Source: a virus
DNA length: 64,000 bases
Direction: 5' to 3' (one strand)
Virus record (IMG/VR): IMGVR_UViG_3300009514_001427
The position numbers and the translations under genes are program-made. This document shows, one piece after another, positions 11,016 to 12,090 of this stretch. Within the stretch, counting starts at the first letter, position 1. Each line of letters begins with the position of its first letter. The notes beneath the pieces are model-generated. The model was given only the letters and a program-made list of their open reading frames with translations, searched no databases and was not told the origin of the DNA.

Positions 11016-11617
11016 TGAATTGGTTGCAGAGAATAGCTACTTGGCAAGAGAAGGGATTAGATGCTGCTCAGCATTTGAATCAAGCATTCTCAGTCACATT
11101 TAGGACAATAGATGCACCCAAAAATGTATTTGAGCATGTGGATTCGGGTTTAATACACTATTTAACAAACATGCGCTCTAGCACTTACAGAGCTGGAGGC
11201 AGAGCCGAATTAGGATTTGATCCTACCACTACATTTGAGTATCAGGACTTCTATTTTGTTTTCGACGACTGTATGTACAAGTTGCAAGTTCCCTTGGGGT
11301 CGTCAATGTCTTTCGATCAGAATCCTTCTTGGGGTGACAAGATGAAGATGATTGACACTCATAATTTAGTTGGAATTCTTGTCCGTATTTATGATGAGCA
11401 GATTGGGACTGAACGCTCTGAGGTTGGTGTAATTCGGGGGTCTGATCCTATGCAGTTTTCCATGAACACTGAATCTGCGATCAAGTCTGATAGAGGTGAT
11501 AATGATTTTGAAGAGCCTTTAGAGCCAGACCCTGATCCAGGGCTATATGAAAACGATCCAGATTTTGAGGATGAGTTAGCCATGCGTGATACACGTATTA
11601 GAGGTTTAAGAGTGTGA
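11015..11617 (+). CDS. leader-tagged hypothetical protein
   Basis: N-term MNWLQRIA; coupled. Confidence 0.5.
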   Translation: MNWLQRIATWQEKGLDAAQHLNQAFSVTFRTIDAPKNVFEHVDSGLIHYLTNMRSSTYRAGGRAELGFDPTTTFEYQDFYFVFDDCMYKLQVPLGSSMSFDQNPSWGDKMKMIDTHNLVGILVRIYDEQIGTERSEVGVIRGSDPMQFSMNTESAIKSDRGDNDFEEPLEPDPDPGLYENDPDFEDELAMRDTRIRGLRV

Positions 11618-12090
11618 ACTGGCTACAAAAGATCTCCAACGATACGTTAGACTCTATGTTTAACACTCCATCTAGACAAGTAGTGCGCAAAGATCCTCCT
11701 CAGCAAGAGCCAGTCACTTTAACCTTGTATCACGGATCGAAATGGGAAGAGCTTAGTGATGGTCTTGTTTTAGATCCCAACAAGTCGGAGCAAGGAGCGT
11801 TGTGGTTTTCACGTCGTCCTGATGATGCTAAATGGCGTGGTCCATGGTTGGTGACGTATCCGCTACAAGCCACGAAGCATGTAGAGCGCATTCATTATGA
11901 TGATGGATCGACTTACGATGATGTACCTGAGCAGATTCATGCAGCCTGTGAGCCTACTGAGAATTGTAGATTCTATGGCGGAATTGAATTGCCTGAAGGA
12001 TGGTTCTTCAGTTACAAGGTTGAGAAGCATATAATATGTACTGTTCCTCTTAAGATTAGTCCAGATATGTTGCAGAGGGTTGAGGAATGA
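11614..12090 (+). CDS. leader-tagged protein with ART-fold (ADP-ribosyltransferase/Tpt1-like) motif
   Basis: N-term MNWLQKIS; LYHGSKWEEL...GALWFS resembles H-Y-E ART / PARP HGS...G-x-Y-F pattern. Confidence 0.45.
   Translation: MNWLQKISNDTLDSMFNTPSRQVVRKDPPQQEPVTLTLYHGSKWEELSDGLVLDPNKSEQGALWFSRRPDDAKWRGPWLVTYPLQATKHVERIHYDDGSTYDDVPEQIHAACEPTENCRFYGGIELPEGWFFSYKVEKHIICTVPLKISPDMLQRVEE

Follow-up and report, generated by a model that had tools for sequence, protein, structure and literature searches.

A leader-tagged orphan protein family with a predicted ADP-ribosyltransferase-like fold in a phage gene array

We analyzed a 64,000-nucleotide stretch of DNA from IMG/VR virus record IMGVR_UViG_3300009514_001427 (the window) and, within it, the gene at 11614..12090 on the + strand (the target), which encodes a protein of 158 amino acids (aa). 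Based upon its predicted structure and the pattern of conservation among its relatives, the target protein is most aptly placed in a new sequence-orphan family that appears to have an ADP-ribosyltransferase (ART) fold and whose signature is R/H-G, W-F, and E-L-P-x-G-W. In the reading that we favor, to which we would give about an even chance, the target is a stand-alone, very divergent ART-fold effector of ~130 aa that carries a 9-residue leader peptide and forms one unit of a leader-addressed array, in which a "polyvalent" protein is split into separate genes.

A rare family of orphan proteins

The target is a real open reading frame, and its GTG start shares the sequence GTGA with the stop codon of the upstream gene, which it overlaps. 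GAGG stands ~12 nt 5′ of this start, and a metagenome gene call on a 153-kb contig (P0001; P numbers denote homologous proteins and L numbers related loci) has equal length and 99% identity to the target. The string LYHGSKWEELSDGLVLDPNKSEQGALWFSRRPDDA, from which an earlier note on this DNA had proposed an ART, was found at residues 38–72 of the encoded protein. In a scan of all window open frames of at least 100 aa (27,760 residues in total), the pattern HG[ST]...G-x(1,2)-aromatic-aromatic occurred a single time; shuffles of the target protein contained it at a frequency of 0.08%.

The family to which the target belongs is rare, is known only from metagenomes, and has no detectable sequence relatives among known families. 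A family profile searched at E ≤ 0.001 against 1.84 billion cluster representatives recovered 64 family proteins, 60 of them with E values below 1e-10, and showed no tail of matches toward known families. The 35 relatives of the target returned by a word-indexed search were all metagenomic, and none had a Pfam domain. The target itself gave no match in Pfam, PHROGs, NCBIfam, or PADLOC at E ≤ 1 to 0.01, no match to PARP, diphtheria-toxin, DarT, ART-PolyVal, or Tpt1 profiles even at E ≤ 1, and no tblastn match among 50,697 phage records; no ART family appeared among the profile matches of 34 family members. Six of the 34 matched Imm35 weakly over ~20–30 residues around ELPEGWFFSYK (E ≥ 0.005, sub-cut-off), and we rejected Imm35 identity as a coincidence of motif.

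Predicted fold and conserved motifs

An AlphaFold2 model of the target, computed from a 34-sequence alignment, had a predicted local distance difference test score (pLDDT) of 87.5 and a predicted template modeling score (pTM) of 0.77. The ART core fold is a split β-sheet of two three-stranded units with intervening helices, and the model is predicted to have this core. Resemblances at the level of the model, all with modest scores, were to OspC3/CopC, TreX/TreTu, and PARP15/10/16/1/4 and further to CARDS, LT, pertussis toxin, diphtheria toxin, exotoxin A, Scabin, C3, Arr, DarT, and RES toxins. For a predicted structure, so uniform a list of ART resemblances is unlike the outcome expected from chance. 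Because the scores are modest and a Foldseek search of the model against the PDB gave no meaningful match (best E 0.76), the relationship of the target to known ARTs is a distant one.

The conserved motifs of the target are predicted to fall where ARTs have the elements of their NAD site. Their order in the model is an [R/H]-G strand end, an interval of ~24 residues, a G-x-x-W-F-[TSA] strand with a helix after it, and an E-L-P-x-G-W loop leading into a predicted strand hairpin that bears E137. We counted residues in 56 aligned family members, numbered by the window protein. Position 40 was Arg in 43 members, His in 4, Ser in 6, Thr in 2, and Leu in 1, and was followed by G41 in 53 of the 56, as in ARTs, where an NAD+-contacting Arg or His, usually with Gly after it, stands at the end of strand 1 (the site was placed by secondary-structure order). 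Arg and His are the strand-1 residues in the three great ART clades (PMC9503650), and exchange between them at position 40 is therefore compatible with a role in the NAD site. On the predicted second strand, W64 was present in 55 members and F65 in all 56, and position 66 was Thr (35), Ser (11), or Ala (10); here W-F-[TSA] replaces the Tyr or S-T-S of ARTs. Y82 was found in 51 members. The two candidates for the catalytic acid, which in ARTs lies at strand 5, are E125, present in 47 members (84%), and E137, a position occupied by Glu in 33, Gln in 18, and Asp in 3 (96% together). Close to E125, P127 was invariant (56/56), G129 was present in 49 members, and W130 was present in 47, with Phe in the remaining 9.

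These results leave the idea of an ART standing in part. Fold resemblance in the structure prediction speaks for it, but PARP, DarT, and Tpt1 profiles do not match the target, and the His and Tyr positions of the proposed motif are not conserved. The class named in the earlier note, the H-Y-E type of PARPs and diphtheria toxin, does not fit the family, in which His at position 40 is far outnumbered by Arg (77%) and motif 2 is Trp-Phe, never with Tyr at position 64. The His to which significance had been attached is a minority state, seen in the window protein and its nearest relative, P0002, and otherwise in just two distant members. The R-S-E clade fits no better, as the family has W-F-[TSA]-[HR] instead of S-T-S, the window protein has His though the family consensus is Arg, and there is no E-x-E, the nearest equivalents being E125-L-P-E128 and K-x-E137-K.

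A canonical ART module beside the target

The target lies in an array of eight leader-tagged genes that overlap or abut one another (Table 1). The products of this array are a DSPc phosphatase plus AAA_33 kinase, a 1014-aa protein with an SNF2 helicase at its C-terminal end, three unknown proteins, the target, a 572-aa protein of two modules, and a 209-aa protein that by eye is kinase-like. The leader-tagged 209-aa protein (13802..14431, +), which had no Pfam or NCBIfam match, contains GHGSFGVVY...K...DLHGGNFGW and looks by eye like a minimal protein kinase.

Table 1. Coordinates and features of the target, the leader array, and the ADP-ribosylglycohydrolase homolog in the window
Feature	Position	Strand	Remarks
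Array of eight leader-tagged genes	6078..14431	+	overlapping or abutting
Target gene	11614..12090	+	N-terminal leader, short linker, and predicted divergent ART-fold domain of ~130 aa
Leader of target, (V/M)NWLQKISN	11614..11640	+	predicted detached short helix, residues 4-9, pLDDT 54-69 (low confidence)
L-Y-H-G	11725..11736	+	end of predicted first core strand (30-42); putative NAD-contacting [R/H]-G position
W-F-S	11803..11811	+	on predicted second core strand (63-66), then helix 69-73; place of the ART Tyr/S-T-S motif
E-L-P-E-G-W	11986..12003	+	loop just 5′ of strand; most conserved block; E125 is a candidate catalytic acid
E137	12022..12024	+	second candidate catalytic acid; strand hairpin after the E-L-P-x-G-W loop
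First module of 572-aa protein	12087..13061	+	canonical HGT-type ART with its own leader; H-G-T at 12480..12488
Internal leader copy, SNWMQRIA	13062..13085	+	junction of the two modules of the 572-aa protein
Second module of 572-aa protein (module B)	13086..13805	+	LYHATP...FMSFTS; ART-like by eye only
ADP-ribosylglycohydrolase-fold gene	17301..18185	-	PF03747, 4.5e-39; degenerate metal-ligand motifs

The first module of the 572-aa protein is a canonical ART with an invariant F-H-G-T motif. Its matches to Pfam PARP were weak but consistent, with E from 0.076 down to 2e-5 across four homologs and the window protein. Run against PDB sequences, its profile matched Tpt1 enzymes and nothing else, and T4-like Vibrio phages encode homologs of it as hypothetical proteins. 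Module B follows the pattern K-K-L-Y-H-A-T-P...F-G-G-x-x-[DE]-[FY]-[MV]-S-F-T-[ST], in which many residues are invariant and which, by eye, resembles strands 1 and 2 of ARTs; in relatives this module either stands by itself or is joined to other partners. Assignment of module B as an ART found no Pfam or PDB sequence support, and we did not adopt it.

An HGT...GIY-type ART stands immediately 3′ of the family member in the window, in L015 (MFHGTSS...GGIYLTD), and in L022 (VYHGT...DGIYVST). In P0053, the target domain is fused behind an ART-PolyVal-like module, and in L003 an ART-like gene lies two genes downstream of the family member; L001, L006, L007, L011, L023, and L024 have a family member and no ART. 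The family and the canonical ART may be tandem paralogs or a functional pair, and because leader arrays are generally rich in ARTs, we do not take the pairing as proven. Arrays of relatives also carry NUDIX, GNAT, ParB, ART-PolyVal, and Tpt1-like modules. In the related locus L012, the array is followed, as in the window, by genes for ribosomal protein S21, a small protein, an ADP-ribosylglycohydrolase (ARH) homolog, and a giant Ser-rich protein. This syntenic locus lacks the target family, and arrays therefore vary in content.

A leader peptide shared by eight genes

The leader tag noted earlier on the target is common to eight consecutive + strand genes, with starts at 6078, 7250, 10288, 10482, 11015, 11614, 12087, and 13802, and M-[NS]-W-[LF]-[QE]-.. 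opens each of them. The fuller pattern M[NS]WLQ[KR]I[AIS] holds for six of the eight leaders; that at 7250 is MNWFEKIA, and that at 10288 diverges after MNWLQ. Codons at equal positions differ synonymously among the copies (TTG/CTA/TTA, CAA/CAG, AAA/AAG/AGA/CGG, ATA/ATC/ATT, and GCT/GCA/GCC), which argues that the leader is conserved as a peptide rather than as DNA and excludes a DNA or RNA element. No paper on the leader strings turned up in the literature, and when IMG/VR was scanned for exact matches to degenerate DNA encoding the leader, the 6 loci found were uninformative.

Leaders of this sort recur in relatives, both at gene starts and inside proteins. In L012, at least 10 genes in a row are leader-tagged, and in L025, 5 genes are. 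Multi-module homologs of the neighboring genes have the leader motif at every junction, as in P0037 (DSPc - SNWLVRVS - ART - SSNWLKKIAS - Tpt1-like) and P0038 (ART - YSNWFTKVAS - ART-PolyVal); P0036, P0041, P0043, and P0044 are combinations of ParB-like, NUDIX, GNAT, and ART-PolyVal modules. An internal leader at a module junction, as at 13062 in the window, is found in P0036, P0037, P0038, P0043, and P0044. Leader-like remnants also occur at C-termini, in the SNF2 protein (...ASSWLARVL*, 10240..10291, +), in P0040 (...IQQWLKSAHIT*), and in P0041 (...VKNWLTKSIIYG...), and give the impression that gene boundaries shifted and took in parts of downstream leaders.

The target-family domain itself bears at least four lineage-specific types of leader, namely MNW[LY][QK]K.., MKIYKIAQ, M[KR]F[KR]x[FWY][LI]E, and MK.[LY]I[KQ].LLRE, and entire arrays carry the second kind in L003 and the third in L025. 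The third kind resembles the capsid-targeting sequence (CTS) of phage T4, MKTYQEFIAE (bioRxiv 10.1101/2021.01.19.427310; CTS properties in PMC9026906). Like that sequence, the leaders are short N-terminal peptides common to otherwise unrelated proteins of a variable cluster. On a T4-like IMG/VR contig (L005/L006), a family member lies between the genes for the large terminase and a T4-type portal. Phage ARTs are often packaged in the head, and a context of this type is taken as a sign of such packaging (PMC9503650). Together with the polyvalent-type domain repertoire of the arrays, these points make a packaging or processing address the best reading of the leader. For entry into the procapsid, the L006 homolog offers indirect support; a search for a cultured relative with virion proteomics found none.

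Three side observations concern leaders and their possible processing. The gene directly after the array (14894..16045, -) encodes a candidate leader-processing enzyme, a subtilase of the S8 family (Pfam 6.5e-59) that has a Pro/Glu-rich linker and ends in a coiled coil. In L003 (535..4524 and 7246..7584), a second repeated N-terminus, MK[VI]KLS[RK]..W[EQ]..G.KAGWIK[TEK]A, heads six small genes. A 175-aa open reading frame in L017 (11..538, +) that starts with MNWLQKIARDVSREEIPLMWQTPSGFKIVQSYPE... resembles, by eye, the C-terminal part of a T7-like RNA polymerase, here carrying the window leader.

The ADP-ribosylglycohydrolase homolog and other genes

The ARH gene reported in the earlier note, ~5 kb from the target and on the opposite strand, is confirmed by a strong match to Pfam ADP_ribosyl_GH and is syntenic with the array in L012. 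When the protein is aligned to solved ARHs, however, the window has Y-S-D-A-G versus W-[ST]-D-D-[ST] and G-N-D-C-G-G versus G-G-D-[TA]-D-T; the L012 ortholog (11568..12464, -) has Y-A-D-A-G and G-N-N-C-S-I, and motif changes are in this way kept in two related phages. SDAG and GNDCGG stand in place of the two motifs that supply the metal ligands in ARHs. As these motifs are changed and all characterized ARHs rely on a binuclear metal center (PMC7050489), canonical hydrolase activity of the homolog is doubtful, and the protein may be inactive or repurposed. The region does carry genes of ADP-ribosylation type, with a canonical ART next door to the target and the ARH homolog nearby, but the proposed cycle between target and ARH is not supported. 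A reversible pair of the DraT/DraG kind would have an ARH with an intact binuclear metal site, conserved next to the ART. The metal-ligand motifs of the window homolog are altered, and no ARH was listed among the annotated genes flanking those family members that we inspected.

Several other genes deserve mention. An 875-aa homolog of the eukaryotic Major Vault Protein (48132..50759, -) matches MVP_shoulder (1.7e-23), Vault_3 (1.7e-9), and Vault (3.5e-4); it has no close relative in IMG/VR and no PHROG or NCBIfam match, and the genome that encodes it appears to be that of a large phage. Eukaryotic vaults contain PARP4, an ART. Between the array and the ARH gene are genes for ribosomal protein S21 and a CspA-like cold-shock protein (16458..16673, -, and 16666..16899, -); the syntenic S21 gene of L012 carries PF01165. 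The 3808-aa product of 18530..29956 (-) has many long poly-Ser linkers between its domains and shares its C-terminus with the end gene of L012. A glutamine synthetase gene is present at 33653..35044 (-; Gln-synt_C, 2.3e-72), and the T4-type portal gene of L006 (3505..6039, +) is split by an intein (Intein_splicing, 5.4e-10).

Discussion

In the mechanism that we favor, the array would be a "polyvalent protein" divided into separate genes, and the leader would be a lineage-specific address or processing peptide with a logic like that of the T4 CTS, by which all modules would reach one shared place, most likely the procapsid, and be delivered along with the DNA. The leader-bearing genes are probably a set of effectors turned on the host. 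Within this set, the target domain would bind NAD+ via its [R/H]-G strand and invariant W-F strand and would move ADP-ribose to a host target, possibly acting jointly with the canonical ART that often stands beside its family.

Several results weigh against this proposal. Pfam searches, phmmer searches of the PDB, and profile searches of the PDB were all negative for the target and its family, so that no sequence or profile links the family to any ART family; hhalign of the target family against the neighboring ART, module B, and ART-PolyVal modules was also negative, with the leader alone aligned in the case of module B. The residue equivalences with known active sites come from secondary-structure order and not from superposition. 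Half of the contexts that we examined show the family member alone or among glycosyltransferases. As for packaging, the window leader has no Glu of the kind found at T4 cleavage sites, and among the window genes we identified neither a recognized prohead protease nor a capsid protein. Finally, the candidate catalytic positions vary, with Ser, Thr, or Leu at position 40 in 9 of 56 members and Gln at position 137 in 18. This variability, together with the failure of any ART profile to recognize the family, would also suit a pseudo-ART that has kept the fold and lost catalysis, and that serves as partner, regulator, specificity factor, or neutralizer of the adjoining ART or binds NAD+ or molecules derived from ADP-ribose without transfer. 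The placement of the family directly upstream of a canonical ART in the window, L015, and L022, and its fusion to one in P0053, point the same way. We nevertheless consider loss of catalysis unlikely, because the best-conserved residues ([R/H]-G, W-F, and E-L-P-x-G-W) fall at the expected NAD-site elements of ARTs, the residues of active ARTs, Arg and His, account for 84% of position 40, and the family is also found with no ART nearby (L001, L006, L023, and L024). Moreover, active ARTs with non-canonical residues exist, such as AcrIF11 with H-F-H-D.

The negative searches would also be explained if the target were unrelated to ARTs, having some other α/β fold or an AlphaFold2 model that is partly wrong, so that the likeness is superficial and the function lies apart from NAD+. 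Given the uniformity of the ART resemblances of the model, we think this improbable. Least probable is the scheme that the earlier note had drawn from the His of the window protein and the nearby ARH gene, in which the target is an H-Y-E enzyme like PARPs or diphtheria toxin, or a Tpt1-type RNA 2′-phosphotransferase, in a reversible cycle with the ARH. His occurs in 4 of 56 members and Tyr is missing from motif 2; neither PF00644 nor PF01885 matched at E ≤ 1, and there was no PTS_2-RNA match. Tpt1/KptA enzymes, which are recognized by PF01885, an architecture of an N-terminal RNA lobe plus an NAD+ lobe, and conserved Arg/His residues, have ~180 aa in two lobes, whereas the target has a single small domain, and the neighboring gene is closer to Tpt1 than the target is. 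In both the window and L012, the second Asp of [ST]DD[ST] and the D-T of GGDxDT are missing from the ARH homolog; all ARHs characterized so far need metal coordination (PMC7050489). No ARH is listed beside other family members.

A broader version of our preferred reading, in which the target is a leader-addressed ART-fold effector, is possible, and we put it forward tentatively, as rather more apt to fail than to hold. Here, the MNWLQKIA-type peptide would be a general cargo-address and processing signal of a group of uncultured large phages, in a "split polyvalent protein" system whose interchangeable tagged modules, fused or separate, are loaded into the virion or another phage-built compartment, and the orphan R/H-W-E domain would be a new ART catalytic class that forms an obligate pair with a canonical H-type ART. 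Phage ARTs are first-line tools of host takeover and anti-defense, as with T4 Alt/Mod and AcrIF11, and new ones are invisible to sequence annotation; the target family would contribute a small ART fold whose residue set is unusual and which recurrently partners canonical ARTs. If the leader is a packaging or processing address, it would permit a sequence-only listing of delivered effectors in uncultured large phages and would provide a portable tag for loading proteins into them.

Among known systems, the closest parallel for the leader is phage T4, in which the ART Alt is packaged in the head and injected, and unrelated fast-evolving proteins share a 10-residue N-terminal address peptide (PMC3012670; PMC9026906). 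In the window, too, unrelated enzymes share just a short N-terminal peptide; moreover, some family members have an M[KR]F[KR]xF[LI]E leader, and one homolog lies between the large terminase gene and a T4-type portal gene. By contrast, the MNWLQKIA leader of the window has no Glu cleavage motif, and leaders of the window type persist inside fused proteins, unlike those of T4. Alt itself, a large enzyme of the R-S-E clade, has STS and ExE motifs, neither of which the target has. More generally, the target differs from R-S-E ARTs (cholera and pertussis toxins, C3, and T4 Alt/ModA/ModB) in lacking S-T-S, E-x-E, and a profile match and in having His rather than Arg.

The composition of the array recalls the polyvalent proteins of phages and conjugative elements, which combine unrelated effector domains (ART, SNF2 ATPase, protein kinase, ParB, and others) in one polypeptide and are delivered early (Iyer et al., 2017, PMC5512222). 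Leader arrays contain the same domain repertoire, and homologs of the neighboring genes are true multi-module fusions, with two or three modules in P0037, P0038, P0043, P0044, and P0053 and two in the neighboring window gene. The window modules, however, are mostly separate overlapping genes with their own leaders, the target has a single domain, and no MuF or zincin peptidase hub was seen. Nor does the target belong with ART-PolyVal/Tox-ART-HYD2, as it has no PF18760 match and hhalign against ART-PolyVal modules was negative. The likeness to polyvalent proteins is an analogy at the level of the array rather than a matter of membership.

For the domain itself, the most instructive comparison is with AcrIF11, a small phage ART that was too diverged in sequence to be assigned, was recognized from its structure, and has H-F-H-D rather than H-Y-Y-E (PMC12421852). 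The target has no detectable sequence homology to this anti-CRISPR ART of phages and plasmids (PDB 6KYF and 8DWQ), its conserved residues differ (R/H-G, W-F, and E-L-P-x-G-W), and it carries a leader and sits in an effector array and not beside an aca repressor gene. Because AcrIF11 is an ART that was unseen in sequence and revealed by structure, it provides a precedent for our reading of the target.

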